DNA of 43,755 nucleotides, taken from the IMG/VR virus record IMGVR_UViG_3300012921_000051, positions 1 through 43,755 of that record; one strand, given 5' to 3'. This DNA is from a virus. Lineage: Duplodnaviria > Caudoviricetes. Positions 19,803 to 43,755 of the stretch are shown piece by piece. How positions within the stretch are numbered: position 1 is the first letter of the stretch; every line of letters begins with the position of its first letter. Both the position numbers and the translations under genes were made by a program. The notes under the pieces were generated by a model that did no database searches, was not told where the DNA came from, and saw only the letters and a list, made by a program, of their open reading frames with translations.

Positions 19803-21296
19803 TTAACGGGGTGTTTTCGTTGGACCTAGCGAAAGCAGTCCGGCCTGCCGCACGAGTTCGGGGTAGCGTCGAATCATGCTGACTGGTTCAGGATCGCCCG
19901 GGTAGTAAGTTCCGTTGTTGCGGGCTAGGTGCTCCTGTCTGAAGCGCTGGCCGATCCAGTAGTCCGATACAGCGGTGGCGCTCCCGGTGCCGTAACTGGT
20001 CAAATCCACGAGCGTCTTCTCGTTGGCAAGCGCCCACAGCTGACCTGCGAGCTCTGACGCCGTTCGAACCTGCGGGTACTCGCTGGAGCTAGTTCTGGAA
20101 GGAAACGACACCCCTATCTTGGAATAAAAAGGCTCGGCCAAAACCCTGTCGACTGTCGGGATCGTCCCCGTCTCGACGAAGGTGCTGACTATCGGCATCA
20201 GCACCAATAGCTCGATCTGAGCTCTGTCCGTCCAAGTGGTCACGATCGTCGCGACGGTGTCCACGATTCGCTTTATGGACCTAGCGCCAAGGCCCGAGGC
20301 GGCAAGATAGGCAGCGATGAACTCAATCGGGGAATAGCCTCGGGGCGCGGAGAGCTTTGACTCGTCGACGGGCGTGTCAACGAATAGTGCGCGGACGAGG
20401 GTCGCCGGATCCGGCGGCTCGAATTGGAAGGTCCGGTCGAAAAATCTGTGAAGATAGCGGCGGCCATCGAATTCGCTCCCATAGACGCCCCTGATTGAGT
20501 GCGCGAGCTGCTCGCTGTCGGTGGCTACTACGAAGACGACATTCGGCAGCTCAAAGAGGTGCTTTATCCGCTCCAGCATGGCGATCGCGTAAGGAGGGCG
20601 GCAACGGTCGAGTTCGTCCACCAACACGAAAAGCGGCGATGCGATCCCGTCCGTCTCTTCGACTTTCGTGACGAAGTCCGCCAAGCTTTTTCGAAATTCG
20701 TCGAGGCTCGCCTTTTCCGTCCGAAAGTCATCGACGGCGCTGGCTTCCTTCGCTTCGATTTGCTTCTCCACCGCTTCCTTTGTCGCCGCAGCGACCGCAT
20801 CGCCGGCGCCGGTTGCGGCTGTCGGCGAGACATTGGTCACCGCTTCGCCGATCGCGGTCGCTATTCCCTCGGTCAACGCCCATGATAAACCGCGCAGCGC
20901 CAGTCCCTTCACTACGAGCTTTGCCACGCTGCCGGCCTTCGTTCGCGCTTTGACGAAAGCCTTCGAGGCGGGAGCCTTTGAGCCCAGGCGGGATTTCATC
21001 TCCTCGTCGATCGCCGCCATGACAGCGATCAGAGGATCGTCGGCGAAATCGTCTCGCCAACAATCGACATAGACGGCGATGTGTCCCTGAGCCGCCAGCA
21101 TCTTCCTCAGTCTGGTGAGGAAGAATGTCTTTCCGTCGCCCCAGCGAGCATCAATGTTGAGGACGAACGACCTTGTCTGCTTCTGGTAGGCGAGCTCCTT
21201 GCTGCGGCTTCTCAGGAAAGTGGCCAGGAATTCGGCCGTCTTTCTCCTGTCGAGCAGGTCGTCGCTCCAGATCGGGTCTGGCGTTACTTGGCTCAT
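19803..21296 (-). CDS. KAP family P-loop NTPase
   Basis: WSDDLLDR, Walker A DARWGDGKT, Walker B VLVDELDRCRP, LERIKHLF, YLHRFFD; RBS GGGGGG before the ATG at 21296. Confidence 0.9.
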   Translation of the reverse strand: MSQVTPDPIWSDDLLDRRKTAEFLATFLRSRSKELAYQKQTRSFVLNIDARWGDGKTFFLTRLRKMLAAQGHIAVYVDCWRDDFADDPLIAVMAAIDEEMKSRLGSKAPASKAFVKARTKAGSVAKLVVKGLALRGLSWALTEGIATAIGEAVTNVSPTAATGAGDAVAAATKEAVEKQIEAKEASAVDDFRTEKASLDEFRKSLADFVTKVEETDGIASPLFVLVDELDRCRPPYAIAMLERIKHLFELPNVVFVVATDSEQLAHSIRGVYGSEFDGRRYLHRFFDRTFQFEPPDPATLVRALFVDTPVDESKLSAPRGYSPIEFIAAYLAASGLGARSIKRIVDTVATIVTTWTDRAQIELLVLMPIVSTFVETGTIPTVDRVLAEPFYSKIGVSFPSRTSSSEYPQVRTASELAGQLWALANEKTLVDLTSYGTGSATAVSDYWIGQRFRQEHLARNNGTYYPGDPEPVSMIRRYPELVRQAGLLSLGPTKTPR

Positions 21297-21452
21297 GGCT
21301 GTCCCCCCTGATTCAAGGATTACCGCGAGAATGTGAGTCGAACCAGAGACGCCTTGACCCTCCACCCTCTGCCGTGACAGCCTGACGGTGGCGCTGCTTG
21401 CGCCGCGGCGCAGGCAGCGGTTCGCGGCGGGTCGAGTGGACCGGTTCGGCCT

Positions 21453-21476
21453 CCCGCCCGCCTTGGCGGGCATGAC
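21453..21476 (+). promoter_or_regulatory. putative late-promoter activator site (head operon)
   Basis: Second copy of CCCGCCCGCC-N5-GGGCATGAC, upstream of the protease gene. Confidence 0.65.
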
Positions 21477-21509
21477 GACCACCCCCGATTGCGGGGCAAT
21501 GTCGGCGTC

Positions 21510-22610
21510 ATGCTTCGATCCGACGTCAACATCTCCATGCATTCAGCCGCGACGGCCGCCGCCGGCGTGGCTCTCTGCGCAGCGGTGATGCTGGGCGACG
21601 CGGTCGAAGCCCCCGAATGGATCCAGCTGCTGCCAGCGGGCATTATCCGGACGGGCGACGGCCGCGGCCCGTATCGCGTCGCCGACACCTCCGAGCTGGT
21701 CCGCGTCTCGCTCCAGGCGGGCGACCGTCTGCCGATCGACGAGAACCATTCCACCGACCTCGCCGCACCGCGCGGCGAGCCGGCGCCGGCGCGCGGCTGG
21801 ATCGTCGCGCTCGAAGCCCGCCAGGACGGGATTTGGGGCAAGGTCGAATGGACTGAGGATGGCAAGCGCCTAGTCGCCGGCCGCGCCTATCGGGGCATCT
21901 CGCCCGTCATCCAGCACAAACCGGACGGCACGGTCACGCAGCTACTGCGCGCCTCGCTCGTCAACCGACCCAATCTGCGCGGCCTTGCCGCGCTCCACGC
22001 AGAGGAAAACTCCATGAACCTGCTCCAGAAGCTCCTGGCCGCACTTGGCCTTCCGGCAGCCACGACGGAAGAAGCTGCGATCGCCGCCGTCACAACGATG
22101 CATGCCCAGCAGGCTGCGTCGTCGACCGCGCTGCAGGCTGCATTGTCGCCCATCGCCAAGGCGGTCGGCTTGCCGGAGACGTCCGACGCGGCGGCGGTGC
22201 TGGCCGGCGTCGAGGCGGTAAAGGGCGGCGACCAGGAGGTCACTGCCCTGCAGGCGGAGCTGACCCGTGTCGCGACCGAGCTGAAGACGCTGCAGGAGGG
22301 CGGCAAGAAGAAGGCCGCCGAGATGTTCGTCGACCAGGCGATCAAGGCCGGTCATGTCGGCGTGAAGCCGTCGCGCGAGCGCTTCATCGCGCTCCACATG
22401 GCTGACCCGGTCGAGACCGAGAAGATGATCAACGCCATGCCGACGCTCGGCGTCGGAGGGCAGGTGGTCCCCAGCACGCCGCCCGCTGCCAATGGCGAAA
22501 TCTCGCTCAATGCCGAGCAGCTCACCGTGGCCCGCATGCTGGGCCAGGACCCGAAGGACTACGCCGCAACCCTCAGGGCCGAGCGCGAACAGCGCGAGGC
22601 AATGCTCTGA
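21510..22610 (+). CDS. prohead protease/scaffold (Mu gpI-like); start uncertain (21510 or 21537)
   Basis: PEWIQLLPAG, PIDENH, PARGWI, VEWT, YRGISPV, LVNRPNL. Confidence 0.9.
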   Translation: MLRSDVNISMHSAATAAAGVALCAAVMLGDAVEAPEWIQLLPAGIIRTGDGRGPYRVADTSELVRVSLQAGDRLPIDENHSTDLAAPRGEPAPARGWIVALEARQDGIWGKVEWTEDGKRLVAGRAYRGISPVIQHKPDGTVTQLLRASLVNRPNLRGLAALHAEENSMNLLQKLLAALGLPAATTEEAAIAAVTTMHAQQAASSTALQAALSPIAKAVGLPETSDAAAVLAGVEAVKGGDQEVTALQAELTRVATELKTLQEGGKKKAAEMFVDQAIKAGHVGVKPSRERFIALHMADPVETEKMINAMPTLGVGGQVVPSTPPAANGEISLNAEQLTVARMLGQDPKDYAATLRAEREQREAML

Positions 22611-36252: not shown

Positions 36253-38454
36253 ATGCCCATCGGTACGATGACGCCGGATATCCCTCCCTCGGACACGATC
36301 ATGGAGGTGCTCGGCAACGCGCTCGTCGCCGGCGTGCCCGACACCGTTCGCCAGTCCTTCGAGAAGCTGTCGATGCAGCTCGCCAGCACCGGGCCGCTTG
36401 CGACGAGGATCGCGGGAGCGGCCGATGGTTTGGTCCAGGTGAACACCTGGGCACAGCTCGAAGCCATCCCCGGCACGCGGGCCGGCCAGCCAGGACAAGC
36501 GATCGGGCCGGATGCTGGCACGCACACCGATCCCGTCGTCGGCGGCATCGTGCCCAACAAGGGAAAATACACCTGGTCGATGGCGCCGGCAGGCTGGCGC
36601 TGGATCGCCGACTATCAGGCGGTCACAGAGGAGACGATCGACGAGGTCTATGATGCGCTCGCGACCAAAGCCAACGACAGCGCCGTCGTCAAGTTGACAG
36701 GCGACCAGGCGGTTGACGGCGTCAAGACATTCTCAGTCCCGCCGACCTTTCCGACACCGGTCGCGGGCACCAACAATACGCAAGCCGCTACAACGGCCTT
36801 CGTCCAGGCGGCCATCTCGGTCCTGCTCGGCGGCGCTCCGCCGGCGGTGCTGGATACGCTCAGTGAGCTGGCAGCAGCGCTGGGCAATGACGCGAACTTC
36901 GCGGCGACCATCGCGAACGCCCTCACCTTGAAAGCACCGTTGAACAATGCCGCGCTGACCGGGACACCGACCGCGCCGACTGCGGCGCCGGGCACGAATA
37001 CGGCGCAGATCGCGACCACGGCGTTCATAAAGGCTGCCATCGACGTTCTGCAGGACGCGATCGCCAACGCGCTCGCCCTCAAAGCGTCGACTGCCGCACT
37101 TGCTGCCGAGCAGGCGGCCCGTGAGGACGGCGATACCGCTCTTGCCGACGAGATCTTCGAACAGACGGTGGCGCATGTGCCTGGCTATGGCGCCTCTCAC
37201 CCTGGCCCTCTCGTGGTTACGAGCGCGGACGGCTACCTGCTGCAGGCACCGGCGATGACGGAGGCTTACCAATCGCACGATCGCGCCCCTGCCATACTGA
37301 CGAGTCCGGACGGGTTCATGATCTCCCGGCTCGGCTACAACCGGAAGCCGCCCGCCGTGGTCAATGCCGATCAGATCCGGCGCCTCAAGCAGAAGCTCCG
37401 GACGATCGACCACGATCCCGGGGCCACTGCTCGCATCTCCTTCGTGGGTGACAGCTGGTCGGCGTCCACGATGCCGGTCCATTACAGGAATCGCCTCGTC
37501 GCGAAATACGGCGATGCCGGTCCTGGGTGGATCAATCTCTCCGGCTCGAACAACAATTATTGCGCAGACGGTCGGGTCGCGGTCGTTACCACGGGCACGT
37601 GGGCCGATCAGGTCGGCTACGAGGCCACCCCTTCGACGACTACGTCTACGACCTCCAGCTCGGCCGCATACAAGACTGTTGTGGGCGTCGGACCGATTTC
37701 TACCGCATGGTTGCACTTCGTCGCGACCGCCGGGGCGGAGGCATTCTACAGCTGGGGCACCTTCATAAGCGGGAACAGGCTGGACCCCGCCAGGTATACG
37801 TTCGGTGCGGATCAGCCGCTGGACCTGTCCACCGGCTTCCGTATCGGTCTCCCCACCGGCATCCCGTCGGGGCTGGCGACCAATGGGTATTGGGCGCTGC
37901 GGATCGGTCGGTCGACCGGCACGATCAAGATCGGCGGTCTCGACATGCTCAATGGTCTGGGCGGCGTCATCGTGGATTCCTTGGCGAAGGGCGGCTCGAA
38001 CACCGACTTCTGGCTCACCCCACCGCGGGTCGCGTGGCAGACGGCCTACGCGTCCCTCAACACTTCCGGGACGTATTTCCTGCACGGCACGAACGATCAG
38101 GCCGGGACCAAACCCGACTGGGATGTGGCGATCAACTTCGACCATTTCCGGCAGAGGCATCTTGCGGCATCGCCCGCCGCCGACCTGATCTACATGACGC
38201 CGTGCGAGAACTTCCTCGGTCGCCCGCGTCTGATCAAGAACATCTCCGCCGCCGTGCGCGAGATGGCGCTCGACACCAACGTCTGCCACCGCGATCTCCA
38301 GGACACCTTCGGCCCGCTGTCGCGGATGTGGGAGTACCGGCACGAGAGCAAAGGCGGCATTCGACCGCTCTTTAATGTGGACGACGTTCACCCCGATGCC
38401 TTCACCGGCATGCTTTCCATCGCCGCCGCCAACGAAGAACTGATCAACTTCTAA
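36253..38454 (+). CDS. tail fibre with C-terminal SGNH/GDSL hydrolase-like domain
   Basis: Fibre repeats PTFPTP..GTNNTQAATTAFV and LDTLSELAAALGNDANFA; SGNH blocks VGDS, GG, GTND, DDVHP. Confidence 0.85.
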   Translation: MPIGTMTPDIPPSDTIMEVLGNALVAGVPDTVRQSFEKLSMQLASTGPLATRIAGAADGLVQVNTWAQLEAIPGTRAGQPGQAIGPDAGTHTDPVVGGIVPNKGKYTWSMAPAGWRWIADYQAVTEETIDEVYDALATKANDSAVVKLTGDQAVDGVKTFSVPPTFPTPVAGTNNTQAATTAFVQAAISVLLGGAPPAVLDTLSELAAALGNDANFAATIANALTLKAPLNNAALTGTPTAPTAAPGTNTAQIATTAFIKAAIDVLQDAIANALALKASTAALAAEQAAREDGDTALADEIFEQTVAHVPGYGASHPGPLVVTSADGYLLQAPAMTEAYQSHDRAPAILTSPDGFMISRLGYNRKPPAVVNADQIRRLKQKLRTIDHDPGATARISFVGDSWSASTMPVHYRNRLVAKYGDAGPGWINLSGSNNNYCADGRVAVVTTGTWADQVGYEATPSTTTSTTSSSAAYKTVVGVGPISTAWLHFVATAGAEAFYSWGTFISGNRLDPARYTFGADQPLDLSTGFRIGLPTGIPSGLATNGYWALRIGRSTGTIKIGGLDMLNGLGGVIVDSLAKGGSNTDFWLTPPRVAWQTAYASLNTSGTYFLHGTNDQAGTKPDWDVAINFDHFRQRHLAASPAADLIYMTPCENFLGRPRLIKNISAAVREMALDTNVCHRDLQDTFGPLSRMWEYRHESKGGIRPLFNVDDVHPDAFTGMLSIAAANEELINF

Positions 38455-38465
38455 GGATCGATTCC

Positions 38466-39374
38466 ATGCCGACTGCCATCATCACTTCGCAGAACGCGGC
38501 CGGTCTGGGTCGCCCGTTTATCGCCCGCCATCGACTCGTCGAGTATGACTTCCGGCGAGGGATCAAGTGGGTATCCTCCTATGCCGATCCGCATTGTTAT
38601 CTGGGCGGCTCACCTGTCGCGAACGGGGCTGTCGTTCGCAACCTCGCCGAGACGTTTGCGGAGCGAAACGCCCCGAGGCCTGCTGGGGAATTCGTCGTTA
38701 CTGCCGGGCAGACGATCACCCACGCTGGCGGCGGTATAGACTTCTCGACCGCGACCGCGGCCAACAGCTACGAGCGCGGCCCGGCAGACGCCGCTGCGGC
38801 GATTTGGGCCAACGGTCAATATTTTCTGTCCATGACGGCGATGAAGCTGCCGACCGAGGCGGACTGGCCCGAGGCCGCAACAATCGCGCCGATCCAGGCA
38901 TGGACAGCAGGTGTGAACGGGTATGCGGCAAATCTGGACATCGCGACGACCGGTATGTTGAGCTACAGCGGGGTTCCCGGCATGGCTATCATTCGGCAGC
39001 ACGGATCGAGCTTCTTGACCGACAGTGCGGGGCTACTCGTGCCGGCCGGGGCTTTCGGCGCCTTCGGACTGGTCGCCTCGTGGTGTGTCCCGGGCGACAT
39101 GGGTGTTAGCCTCACCACGCAGGTCGGTGGCGTCGTAGAGTCGGCACCAAAGGTGCCGACAGCTAACAACGGCGTGAACTTCTCGGCCCTTCGCCCGCTG
39201 CGAGGGCTCCCGAGCAACCTCTGGACCGCGCGCATCGCCGAGAATGCGCACAAGTGGAAGCTCTACTCCTCGTTCGACGACGCGATCCAGCTCGACGGTC
39301 GGAGCATGCGGACCCTGATCGCGCAGCAGTGGGCCGAAGAGAAGGCGAAGTGGGACGCGGGGATCTATTCGTGA
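38466..39374 (+). CDS. hypothetical fibre-associated beta-rich protein
   Basis: RBS AAGGA; 302 aa directly after the fibre gene. Confidence 0.7.
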   Translation: MPTAIITSQNAAGLGRPFIARHRLVEYDFRRGIKWVSSYADPHCYLGGSPVANGAVVRNLAETFAERNAPRPAGEFVVTAGQTITHAGGGIDFSTATAANSYERGPADAAAAIWANGQYFLSMTAMKLPTEADWPEAATIAPIQAWTAGVNGYAANLDIATTGMLSYSGVPGMAIIRQHGSSFLTDSAGLLVPAGAFGAFGLVASWCVPGDMGVSLTTQVGGVVESAPKVPTANNGVNFSALRPLRGLPSNLWTARIAENAHKWKLYSSFDDAIQLDGRSMRTLIAQQWAEEKAKWDAGIYS

Positions 39375-39505
39375 TCGGCCGCCCGACACTCTTTCGACTG
39401 CCCCGGCGCGAACATCTGCTCGACGGAGCCGGCGCGCGGGCGGCATTGCTCCGGCACCGGCGCGCACCCGGCAAGGAAGAGGGCAAGTAGGACCAGAATT
39501 CGCAT
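39365..39505 (-). CDS. small lipoprotein (46 aa), Cor-like superinfection-exclusion candidate
   Basis: Translated by hand: MRILVLLALFLAGCAPVPEQCRPRAGSVEQMFAPGQSKECRAADHE; signal peptide II with lipobox LAGC; RBS GGGGAG. Confidence 0.75.
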   Translation of the reverse strand: MRILVLLALFLAGCAPVPEQCRPRAGSVEQMFAPGQSKECRAADHE

Positions 39506-39520
39506 GACACTCCCCGGCTT

Positions 39521-39607
39521 GGGATCGGGGAGTTGGAAAGCCGCTGACGCAACCGCTTACGCCTTCGGACCGAAGCCCTGTTGTATAGCGCAAGCCTCCC
39601 CGAACCG
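39521..39607 (-). ncRNA. c4-like structured antisense/leader RNA
   Basis: Closing stem GGUUCGGGGAG/CUCCCCGAUCC; inner stem GCUUGCGC/GCGUAAGC; cUUCGg hairpin; segment CGUCAGCGGCUUUCCA complementary to 39671-39687. Confidence 0.65.
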
Positions 39608-39721
39608 AAGCCGGGTCGGTGAAAACGCTCCCCGGATGCACCGGAGAGCGTTTCGGTCCCTGGGACCGTTCGTCAGCGGGGTTTCCACGCCCCAGCGCGC
39701 CATTTGAACGCGCCAAGGCGG

Positions 39722-39750
39722 AATCTAGTCGCGGCGGCCGCTTGCCGCAA
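39722..39750 (-). promoter_or_regulatory. sigma70-type promoter for the c4-like RNA/lipoprotein unit
   Basis: TTGCGG-17 bp-TAGATT on the minus strand. Confidence 0.6.
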
Positions 39751-39942
39751 GGAAGGAAAGGAGAAACAGCCGGGCGAAGCCGGCACATGTGGATGACCAC
39801 GGATGGCCCGGGGTTTGCCCCGGGCAGCGGGACCGCCGCCAAGCAAGAACCCGCCCGACAGCCAGAACACATACCTGTCGCACCCGCTGCCCACGGAAGA
39901 CCGTGAGCCAGACGAGCGTGACCGATTCCTGGACACCCTTAA

Positions 39943-40755
39943 ATGCCCGTTGAAAGCGAATTCACACCTGTTTCATCGACACACCCGCCGGCGCCCTATA
40001 TCGGCGGCAAACGCCGCCTGGCGGCCGAGCTGGTGCGCCGCATCGCGGCGGTGCCCCATCGGGCCTATGCGGAGCCGTTCGTCGGCATGGGAGGAGTGTT
40101 CTTCCGCCGCGATCGCCGGCCGCCGGCCGAGGTAATCAATGACCGCAACGGCGAAGTGGCGAACCTCTTCCGGATCCTGCAGCGCCACTATCCGCAGTTC
40201 ATCGAGACCCTGCGCTTCCAGATCTCCGGACGGAAAGAGTTCGAGCGCCTGAAGGCGTCCGACCCGTCCACGCTGACCGATCTCGAGCGCGCCGGCCGAT
40301 TCCTCTATCTCCAGCGGACGGCCTTCGGAGGCAAGGTGGCCGGGCAGAACTTCGGCGTCGATCCTTACACCGGCGGCGGCTTCAACCTGACGCGGCTGGT
40401 ACCGGTACTCGAGGGCGTGCATGAGCGGCTTGCCGGCGTCGTGATCGAGTGCCTGGACTGGCAGGAATTCATCCGCCGCTATGACCGGCCGAGCACGCTC
40501 TTCTATCTCGATCCGCCCTATTGGGGCTCAGAGGGCGACTATGGGAAGACGCTGTTCGATCGGGCGCAGTTCGCGCTCCTGGCCGATATGCTGCGCGGCA
40601 TCAAAGGGCGGTTCATTCTGTCGATCAACGACCGGCCGGAGGTGCGGGAGGTGTTCGCGGGCTTCGAAGCGGACGGCGCGGAGCTGCTTTACTCAGTGTC
40701 GGAAGGCAAGCCGGTCGCGGCGAAGGAACTGATCATCAGCGGGCCTGCGCAATGA
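39943..40755 (+). CDS. DNA adenine methyltransferase (D12 class)
   Basis: PYIGGKRRLA, YAEPFVGMGGV, EVIND, FYLDPPY; occupies the mom position. Confidence 0.93.
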   Translation: MPVESEFTPVSSTHPPAPYIGGKRRLAAELVRRIAAVPHRAYAEPFVGMGGVFFRRDRRPPAEVINDRNGEVANLFRILQRHYPQFIETLRFQISGRKEFERLKASDPSTLTDLERAGRFLYLQRTAFGGKVAGQNFGVDPYTGGGFNLTRLVPVLEGVHERLAGVVIECLDWQEFIRRYDRPSTLFYLDPPYWGSEGDYGKTLFDRAQFALLADMLRGIKGRFILSINDRPEVREVFAGFEADGAELLYSVSEGKPVAAKELIISGPAQ

Positions 40756-41174: not shown

Positions 41175-41876
41175 CTAGATGAGATCGGGCGGAAGCGGGT
41201 CGAGGATGTCGGGCGTATTGTTCTTGGGCGACCCGACCTTGCGGCCGATCTTCCACATGGTCATCAGCTCGGCCGGGAACGGCTTCATCAGGTCGGCCGG
41301 GTCGTCGCCGAACATCCAGCGGTGATAGTCCTCGGGTGCGATGATGACCGGCATGCGGTCGTGGATCTCGGCGACCATCTCGTTCGGCGGACATGTGATG
41401 ACGGTGAAGGTGCGGATGATCTCGCCGGTCTCCGGGCTCTTCCACTGCTCCCACAGCGCGGCGAGCGCGAACGGCTCGCCCGATCGCATCGCAATCGCAT
41501 AAGGCTGCTTGTCCTTGCCTGTGCCGAGGATGTCCTTCCATTCGAAGAAGCCATCGATCGGCATCAGGCCTCGCCGCGACCTGTAGGCGCCGCGGAACAG
41601 GCCGTTGGTCGCCACCGTCTCGCATTTGGCGTTGATCGGCTGCGCACCACCCTTGGGGTCCTTCACCCAGCCCGGAATCAGTCCCCAGCGTGCCGAGATG
41701 AAGCCGCTTTCCCCGTTGGCGGCATCCGCGACGACGATGATTGGATACTGCTGGCGCGGCGCACCATTCCAGCGCGGGAGGGAGTTGCCGAGCCCCTCGA
41801 CCTCGCTCGGATCGGCAAAAGTGAAGCGCGAGACCAGCTCGCGCAGGGTGTGCTTGATGTGAACCCGACCGCACAT
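41175..41876 (-). CDS. SOS response-associated peptidase (SRAP/YedK-like)
   Basis: N-terminal MCGR, WGLIP, INAKCET, GFFEW, IHDRMPVI; RBS GAGGAGG. Confidence 0.93.
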   Translation of the reverse strand: MCGRVHIKHTLRELVSRFTFADPSEVEGLGNSLPRWNGAPRQQYPIIVVADAANGESGFISARWGLIPGWVKDPKGGAQPINAKCETVATNGLFRGAYRSRRGLMPIDGFFEWKDILGTGKDKQPYAIAMRSGEPFALAALWEQWKSPETGEIIRTFTVITCPPNEMVAEIHDRMPVIIAPEDYHRWMFGDDPADLMKPFPAELMTMWKIGRKVGSPKNNTPDILDPLPPDLI

Positions 41877-42299: not shown

Positions 42300-42899
42300 G
42301 TCCGTCTCGCGCGGCACGGATACCGGACAGGCGTGATCTTCTCTCCGACCGGGGAGGAAGCGCCGGAACAGCCGATCGTCTGGCTGAAGCAGCGCACGCG
42401 CTGGCTGAAGGGCTGGGCGCAGACATGGCTCGTCCACATGCGCGACCCGGCGGAACTCGCATCCGATATCGGCTTCCGGTCCTTCGCCGCGGTCCAGATC
42501 CTGCTGGCGGGTTTGCTCGTCTCGTCGCTGCTGCACCCCATGCTGCTCGTGACGGGGATATTTCTTGCGGCAAGGGTGATCGCCACTGGCGGGCTGACGC
42601 CGATGCAGTTCTTCTTCTTCGCCATGGACGCCTTCAACCTCGTCCTGGGGTACGGCGCGTTCCTGCTGCTCGGCTGGCGCGCGAGCCGGCGGTCGGCGCG
42701 GCGAGGGTTCTGGAAGGTCGTGCTGTTCACGCCGCTCTACTGGATAATGATGTCCGCCGCCGCCTGGCGCGCGCTCTTCCAGCTGTTCACCCGCCCGCAT
42801 CACTGGGAGAAGACGCCGCATGCGCGGCGCCGGCTTCGCGGCGGGGAGGCGAGGGCTGGCCGGGCTACAGTCCGAGGAACGCCGGGCCGTCGCCGATGA
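42300..42899 (+). pseudogene. 3' part of a host GT2 glycosyltransferase gene interrupted by the prophage
   Basis: Frame reads VRLARHGYRTGVI.SPT.EEAP...WLKQRTRWLKGW (QxxRW), TM helices, WEKTPH; no N-terminus. Confidence 0.8.
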
Positions 42900-43755
42900 T
42901 CTTCGGATCTTCCGCGCCAATGACGGCCATGTCGCGTCCGGCATAGGGGATCGAGCGGAGGAGGCGCCGCATCACCGCAACACGGGCCCTACGCTTGTCG
43001 TTCGCGGCCACGATCGTCCATGGCGCATGGGCGCTGTGGGTCCGCGTGAGCATCGTGTCTCGAGCCTTGGTGTAGTCGTCCCACAGCTTCATGCCGGCAA
43101 TGTCGATCGGCGAGAACTTCCAGTTCTTCAGCGGCGAATGTCGCCGGTCGTGGAAGCGCTTCAGCTGCATTTCCTGACCGATGCCAAGCCAGAACTTGAA
43201 GAAGCGGATTCCTTCCTTGGTGATGCGCTCTTCGAAGTAGGGCGTCTCGTCGAGGAATTTCTCGTGCTGCTCGGGCGTACAGAAGCCCATGACCGGCTCG
43301 ACGCCGCCGCGATTGTACCAGGAACGGTCGAAGGTCACGAATTCACCGGCCGTCGGAAAATGTGTCACATAGCGTTGATAATACCACTGCCCGCGCTCGG
43401 TCTCTGTCGGCTTGGTAAGCGCAACGTTGCGCGCGGTGCGGGGGTTCATGAATTGTCGGACAACGAAGATCGTTCCGCCCTTGCCGGCGGCGTCGCGCCC
43501 CTCGAACACGATCATCACCCGCTCGCCTGTTTCCTGAAGCCAGTGCTGCAGCTTCACGAGCTCCATCTGGAGCGTCTCGACCGTCTTGTCGTATTCCTTG
43601 TCCGCCAGCTTGTCGTCGTAGGGATAGCCGCCCGACTTCAGCGCGTTCTTCTCCACCCAGTCCGGGAGCTTCGGATTGCCGACGTCGAAGGTCCGCTCCT
43701 TGCCGCCGATCTTGAGTTTCACCTTCTCGGACGGTTGGTCCTCGGTCTTCGCCAT
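42865..43755 (-). CDS. ppk2: polyphosphate kinase 2
   Basis: [34 protein letters not shown]. Confidence 0.95.

Follow-up and report, generated by a model that had tools for sequence, protein, structure and literature searches.

A leader RNA on the minus strand of a Mu-like prophage, followed by a gene for a 46-residue lipoprotein, can be read as a self-recognising delay switch in which the mature RNA turns the lipoprotein on in the established prophage, where it possibly blocks related phages; we give this reading a probability of roughly 45%. That the RNA controls the lipoprotein is very probable in itself, and activation seems somewhat likelier than repression. The window, i.e., the whole stretch of 43,755 nt that was analysed (IMGVR_UViG_3300012921_000051, Caudoviricetes), is a transposable prophage of 66% G+C with genes for a transposase, a transposition protein, a Mu portal, gpF, siphovirus-type tail proteins and a Dam-type methyltransferase. 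The unit lies between a 302-aa gene, which is located 3' of the tail fibre/spike gene, and dam. Its features and its neighbours are the following:

39769..39784, minus strand: terminator-like hairpin with a T-rich tail, just upstream of the promoter (2 such sites found versus 0.8 +/- 0.8 in shuffles, a weak excess)
39722..39750, minus strand: putative promoter TTGCGG-N17-TAGATT (-35 at 39750-39745, 17-nt spacer, -10 at 39727-39722)
39694..39714, minus strand: 5' leader hairpin predicted by folding, with a hairpin also at this position in the second locus L219 and in plasmid relatives
39671..39693, minus strand: upstream target, a1/b1- or seqA-like; a GGGG/CCCC hairpin presenting UGGAAA, then CCGCUGACG
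39623..39668, minus strand: two spacer hairpins, preserved in L219 as hairpins and not in sequence
39608..39615, minus strand: 5' strand of the outer helix P0, CCCGGCUU, pairing with AAGCCGGG at 39520-39513 and covering the first G's of the Shine-Dalgarno (SD) sequence
39521..39606, minus strand: sRNA-Xcc1-like RNA domain with P1, P2, P3 and a UUUCCAA junction (RF02221 match, covariation)
39534..39549, minus strand: antisense segment (P3 loop and junction), CGUCAGCGGCUUUCCA, complementary to the upstream target
39526..39533, minus strand: 3' strand of P1, which is also the anti-Shine-Dalgarno segment, ACUCCCCG
39509..39516, minus strand: ribosome-binding site (RBS) CGGGGAGU, with GGGGAGU preserved in L219
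39365..39505, minus strand: 46-aa lipoprotein gene with conserved LAGC lipobox, Cys21 and Cys40; its 3' end overlaps that of the convergent 302-aa gene by 10 nt
36253..38454, plus strand: tail fibre/spike gene (PHROG tail fibre; 40% identity over 609 aa to provirus G636), linked to the unit in both phages
38466..39374, plus strand: convergent 302-aa gene with no assigned function, 51% identical to its counterpart in L219 and linked to the unit in both phages
39943..40755, plus strand: Dam-type methyltransferase gene (family match), a divergent neighbour outside the unit

A sequence check placed every motif of the preliminary description of this DNA at its minus-strand position. The promoter that it had proposed is present, and L219, which belongs to provirus G636, has a like pair (TTGCCT-N17-TATCTG) with equal spacing and equal offset; nevertheless, it is weak when compared with the E. 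coli consensus, and a consensus promoter scan returned 0 sites. The terminator-like hairpin upstream of it is a possible insulator. The 5' hairpin (39714-39694, minus strand) holds GCGUUCAAA, which could pair with the UUUUGA junction in the Rfam consensus of Xcc1; as L219 lacks it, this complementarity is probably due to chance. Two overlapping minus-strand ORFs (279 aa and 129 aa) were considered as genes and weakly rejected, since they are not conserved frames in the L219 listing. Elsewhere in the window, a gene for a KAP-family NTPase (579 aa; 19803-21542, minus strand) forms an antisense insert between the gpF and protease genes and is possibly a second accessory gene with a role in defence; a SRAP-family gene (41175-41876, minus strand) lies beyond dam. 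A PPK2 gene of the host (42865-43755, minus strand) at the right end appears to mark the right boundary of the prophage, and its product is 72-75% identical to Mesorhizobium proteins, which indicates a Hyphomicrobiales host.

The leader RNA and its relatives

The 214-nt leader folds with a z score of -5.7, none of 200 shuffles being equally stable, and in the seven segments tried (7/7) folding was better on the minus than on the plus strand; both the structured leader and the preference for this strand had been anticipated in the preliminary description. The covariation check that it had recommended was carried out on 63 matches, in which both sides change in 24 of 27 pairs, 95.5% of the cells pair and 0 of 500 shuffles scored as high, figures that lean towards structure because the sequences share ancestry and were aligned by fitting to the model. 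Chance folding is ruled out by the z score together with the covariation, and the existence of a structured RNA is practically certain. Its domain shows the three-way fold of sRNA-Xcc1, with the AUACAA bulge and an unpaired junction; P1 joins 39603-39596 (UCGGGGAG) with 39532-39525, and P2 carries the UAUACAACA bulge and a UUCG hairpin (cUUCGg at 39575-39570, minus strand).

At the gathering cut-off, Rfam gave no match in the window. The best relaxed match was sRNA-Xcc1 (RF02221), with 32.1 bits versus a cut-off of 53 and an E value of 0.0013, over positions 1-87 of 87; the C4, c4-2 and isrK models are absent among the 5 Rfam matches at E <= 10. Membership in C4 proper, for which an Rfam comparison had been suggested beforehand, is rejected. 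The closest relatives of the window RNA also score 35-37 bits versus the sRNA-Xcc1 model, below the cut-off of 53, and the RNA is therefore assigned to a sister subfamily of sRNA-Xcc1. The R1 score for the window's RNA domain is 57 bits, and a profile built without the window row recovers the window RNA with an E value of 1.6e-9.

A blastn search with the whole unit yielded no phage match and one weak plasmid match; the closer subfamily was found in Alphaproteobacteria by pattern scans, in which real loci were 2 of 33, 2 of 15 (contigs already found), 8 of 21 and 15 of 16, and 0 in two further scans. L161, from the scan with 15 real loci, is identical to the window and was excluded as an independent member. 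Two true Xcc1 members in phages, L108 and L111 (59 and 72 bits), were recognised with 20 of the 33 pattern loci run against Rfam. A covariance model built from 24 sequences, the window included, matches 20 of 151 genomes of the order Hyphomicrobiales, and by reading of the ORFs many of these copies precede genes for small membrane or secreted proteins.

The unit of L129 matches 386 PLSDB plasmids at E <= 1. When 15 plasmid regions were opened, the gene directly downstream was traM in four, a DUF2285 gene in one and an HTH gene in two, the rest being hypothetical, transposase or unannotated. The copies directly before traM (L176:901-1400, L167, L171, L174) are carried by Ti-type plasmids, among them pMP90 of the standard disarmed Agrobacterium strain A. 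fabrum GV3101, and match no Rfam family at the cut-off; traM is a gene that an established plasmid needs on. Copies before DUF2285 genes, which we take to be QseM-like, occur in L170, where the gene is annotated, and in L154, L191 and L129, and copies before HTH regulator genes in L166, L173 and L150, on plasmids and mobile elements. An excerpt of PMC4201532 reports lower TraM in an hfq mutant. Six RNA copies are present in genome G096 (L194, L210, L214, L217) and four in G056 (L204, L213, L216, L218), mostly with different target codes before near-identical small genes. Table 4 of PMC12189769 lists five tandem sRNA-Xcc1 copies about 380 nt apart in Xylella, and for another strain C4, isrK and Xcc1 matches within 400 nt. 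Among the main texts accessible without subscription, no report was found of the subfamily, of an RNA upstream of traM, or of such an RNA before a phage lipoprotein.

Target coding and access to the ribosome-binding site

As the preliminary description had pointed out, the upstream element UGGAAACCCCGCUGACG (39687-39671, minus strand) is complementary to a segment inside the RNA domain; the match comprises two patches of 6 and 9 bp around a small internal loop, and it co-varies in the family. By energy alone it is modest, since equally good pairing is reached by 13 of 774 window tiles; as a two-patch code, a 13/13 match is shown among 970 tiles by this site and its own reverse complement only, six other tiles reaching 12/13. 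Energy ranking was done on 56 of the 63 matches, after five near-duplicates, one match without upstream DNA and a truncated one had been dropped (7 in all); the own upstream region was the best duplex in 25 and among the top three in 38 of the 56, and that of the window ranked second. In the coding count, which included these 56 members and L219 (n=57), the own upstream target matches at 12/13 or better in 55, compared with 84 of 3192 non-own pairs. A downstream c4-type site (at least 12/13, within 113 nt) is present in four of the 57 members, L108, L200, L212 and L185, whose canonical c4-like layout suggests a separate subtype and hence two subtypes. The window has no second target within 113 nt downstream, as had been observed before, and L219 reaches 10/13. 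From the proportions of 55/57 and 4/57, an upstream target characterises the family as a whole, and members of the subfamily normally lack the downstream site, so that the window is no exception in this respect. The earlier proposal of a c4 circuit rewired from an antirepressor operon is thus too narrow: its nearest relatives usually have no downstream site, and the genes that follow them are traM, DUF2285, HTH and small membrane-protein genes.

The preliminary description also proposed that ACUCCCCG pairs either with the RBS, blocking translation, or with the 5' strand of P1, in which case the closed RNA would free the RBS. The first part of this switch is borne out by folding, i.e., ACUCCCCG pairs with the RBS at -17.0 kcal/mol, and in the cis-paired state it buries the whole SD with an unpaired probability of about 0. 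The second part had to be rejected, since in the folded RNA domain the helix CCCGGCUU / AAGCCGGG still engages three of the four G's of the SD; both uncut conformers, which differ by about 2-9 kcal/mol (2-4 in one calculation, 2-9 in another), keep the RBS shut. Anti-SD pairing exceeds 95% of shuffles in only 16 of the 57 members. In nested folding, which cannot represent the likely pseudoknot of the leader, opening the ribosome footprint requires 17.8 kcal/mol in the folded, 15.9 in the cis-paired and 5.9 in the 5'-cut form of the window, and 13.2, 9.2 and 3.8 kcal/mol in those of L219, with P1 held in the cut form and the lower energy after the 5' cut being partly a trivial effect of shortening. 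When P1 is not enforced, the 5'-cut RNA of L219 refolds into an anti-SD hairpin (10.9 kcal/mol). For the 28 members with a usable start, the cis-paired form is harder to open in 10 and the folded form in 13, i.e., there is no polarity, and the 5'-cut form is easier to open than the cis-paired form in 19.

In the mechanism that we propose, the primary transcript would be silent: the target would pair in cis, P1 would open and ACUCCCCG would hide the RBS. With the RNA domain folded, the outer helix P0 would still hide it, and the RBS would become exposed only once the transcript had been cut at the base of P1. An RNA of 80-90 nt would be cut out of the leader in an RNase P-like manner, as for C4; this mature RNA may bind the upstream target of new transcripts, whose RNA domain would then fold and be cut, closing a positive feedback, and the 5'-cut message would be the form that is translated. 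The outcome would be a delay after entry, with the lipoprotein on in the established lysogen; judging from the position of its gene, the protein may go to the envelope and interfere with the receptor of the linked tail spike. Positive processing feedback by CI and C4 is known, and the stem geometry of the modelled RNA domain is compatible with processing by RNase P. In excerpts of the respective sources, C4 is an RNase P substrate (PMC11143913), Northern blots show sRNA-Xcc1 as a separate RNA species of 88 nt (PMC2996969), and IsrK acts in trans as the activator of its own downstream message (PMC4825925). If the RNA does promote its own processing, this would explain how an exclusion protein is delayed until lysogeny.

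The c4/CI RNAs are repressors of phage antirepressor operons, and the most serious alternative, which we consider unlikely, is a repression timer of that type: a burst of lipoprotein synthesis right after entry would be shut off by the RNA as it builds up, either through fixation of the folded, P0-closed state or through termination. Early synthesis of this kind would fit a protective role during infection, opening takes slightly more energy for the folded state bound in trans than for the cis-paired one in the window as well as in L219, and passages of PMC8201110 and PMC4825925 describe repression of downstream genes by P1 C4 and P4 CI. Nevertheless, the window lacks the downstream second site, as do all but four of the 57 members, so the known c4/CI repression route has no site here; moreover, the cis-paired state buries the whole SD, and hence no translation is predicted from the unrepressed state.

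The lipoprotein and its association with tail genes

The LAGC lipobox and the two further Cys that had been noted in the 46-aa ORF are present, and the protein has six close homologues. No match came from a word-indexed search with the single protein sequence; an exhaustive phmmer search found P0121 (69%, E 2.4e-9), and a profile search retrieved five homologues in all among 16 candidates. The AGC of the lipobox, Cys21, Cys40 and GSVEQMF are invariant in the six aligned proteins, and the AGC is also found in L219. A basic n-region, a hydrophobic h-region and a conserved lipobox Cys make up the lipoprotein signal, and LPAM_1 is weakly detected in 4 of the 6 proteins (best E 0.022). The mature lipoprotein has 33 residues; the conserved part is a soluble two-Cys loop, and the hydrophobic part is a signal peptide of the cleavable type. 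Residue +2 is never Asp in the aligned lipoproteins, which in E. coli means the outer membrane, a rule that may not hold in the window's host. No family was matched above the cut-off, nor were Cor or Llp in PHROGs, Pfam and PDB; tblastn of the lipoprotein against phages and plasmids gave only matches at E >= 0.7, and searches at E <= 0.001 hit 3 of 401 and 3 of 243 genomes, with the mature part covered in L220 only. This distant homologue (L220:1492-1671, minus strand) retains both Cys, but its hydrophobic N-terminus is longer and lacks the lipobox Cys, and the RNA is missing upstream of it. The AlphaFold models (pLDDT 62 and 32) are too poor for use, and atlas matches to small lipoproteins at 0.90-0.91 serve as leads only. 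From the lipobox onward, the window and L219 differ by 7 synonymous versus 5 non-synonymous codon changes. By its sequence conservation the ORF is a real, conserved gene, and it defines a new family of small lipoproteins that are candidate exclusion proteins; an exclusion function, suggested by size, lipobox and gene position with Cor as the model, is a tentative assignment with slightly less than even chances.

The L219 lipoprotein is 80% identical to that of the window, and just upstream of it the RNA scores 42 bits (E 3.5e-7) with a model that does not include L219. Target and antisense are both re-coded in this locus with their complementarity preserved, P0 is maintained by compensatory change, and the RBS spacing is also kept. 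The neighbours are the convergent 302-aa gene (51% identity) and then the tail fibre gene, with a lysis cassette in place of dam. G636 has no Mu transposase, and it shares with the window only the tail spike, the 302-aa gene, the lipoprotein, a muramidase domain and two short tail-J stretches. The 302-aa product has no family match at the cut-off, and a search with it returned the L219 contig again and no further locus. The presence of the same unit beside the same tail genes in phages that are otherwise unrelated indicates that the unit moved with the tail-spike module. It stands beside receptor-binding tail genes in both (2/2) of the independent loci with a lipobox and known context; as only two independent loci have RNA and lipoprotein together, this linkage may represent one transfer event; the lipoprotein and 302-aa genes also overlap at their stop codons, and two loci cannot tell function from hitch-hiking as the cause of the linkage.

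An improbable alternative is that the RNA acts mainly in trans on other elements with a matching code, or is carried along as a passenger, with the lipoprotein as a hitch-hiking moron unlinked to the tail genes. The restriction of the RNA-lipoprotein-tail linkage to two loci agrees with it, and so does the absence of the RNA from all 80 Dam-homologue loci that were used as an anchor (20 of them also run against Rfam); in addition, Xcc1 is called trans-acting in the title of Chen 2011. Against it, target, antisense, P0 and RBS spacing are all kept between the two phages with compensatory changes, neither the window RNA nor the L219 RNA has another 13/13 site in its own genome, and the window code gives 13/13 with no other member's target.

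Tight closure of the uncut form is also typical of processing-activated toxin mRNAs, and membrane-pore type I toxins are built differently from a signal peptide with a soluble two-Cys loop. A type I-like toxin-antitoxin or abortive infection system, in which a toxic lipoprotein would be held silent by the RNA and released when RNA turnover is disturbed, is consistent with the tight closure of both uncut conformers and with an excerpt of 10.1101/2025.06.18.660453, in which the most widespread Xanthomonas integron cassette carries sRNA-Xcc1 upstream of the toxin gene symE, and is the least probable reading, given the cleavable-type signal peptide and soluble two-Cys loop of the lipoprotein and the many family members that precede regulators and not toxins.

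The delay switch that we favour may have a wider counterpart. The version with the upstream target only drives other cargo, with codes differing between elements, and it is conceivable, if rather doubtful, that alphaproteobacterial Xcc1/c4-like leaders without the downstream repression site are in general privately coded, processing-activated "established" switches for resident-state genes, such as the tail-linked exclusion lipoproteins of phages and, on conjugative plasmids, traM or DUF2285 anti-activators. If true, newly arrived mobile elements would get a built-in delay.

Comparison with known systems

With sRNA-Xcc1 (RF02221) the window RNA has in common a full-length model match, the fold, the bulge and the single-stranded junction; L108 and L111, which are above the cut-off, share the upstream GUGGAAAC target and a second co-varying patch. 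The difference lies in the score of the window RNA, which falls under the cut-off. To our knowledge, no mechanism has been established for sRNA-Xcc1; in the passages of the literature at hand it is treated as a trans-acting sRNA, and an upstream target of its own is not mentioned there. The resemblance to C4 of P1/P7 (RF01695) and CI of P4, which the preliminary description had seen in the layout, holds in that the RNA lies inside its own leader and exposes two patches complementary to a co-varying upstream site, and the closing stem is of the kind that RNase P cuts. In contrast with C4 and CI, the closest Rfam family is sRNA-Xcc1 and neither C4 nor c4-2, there is no seqC or a2b2 site downstream, and no icd, kil or antirepressor gene follows; as had been noted earlier for the antirepressor, there is a single lipoprotein ORF and then a convergent gene. 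IsrK of Gifsy-1 (RF01394) offers a precedent: as described in part of PMC4825925, this phage RNA belongs to a silent message and also activates it in trans. However, its partner sequence is downstream, in orf45, and here it is upstream, and Rfam gave no isrK match.

Both cor and llp adjoin receptor-binding genes, and the window lipoprotein resembles Cor and Llp in being a small phage lipoprotein with such tail genes beside it at both loci. Cor blocks FhuA, according to an excerpt of PMC13673623. Unlike Cor and Llp, to which it has no sequence match, the window protein has a mature part of only 33 residues, and control by an RNA switch is not described for either of them in the passages of the literature at hand. 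The c4 and c4-a1b1 motifs are listed by Weinberg 2010 (PMC2864571, in the part available). In its working the window RNA resembles the upstream half of a c4/CI circuit, yet it is outside C4 and below the Xcc1 cut-off.
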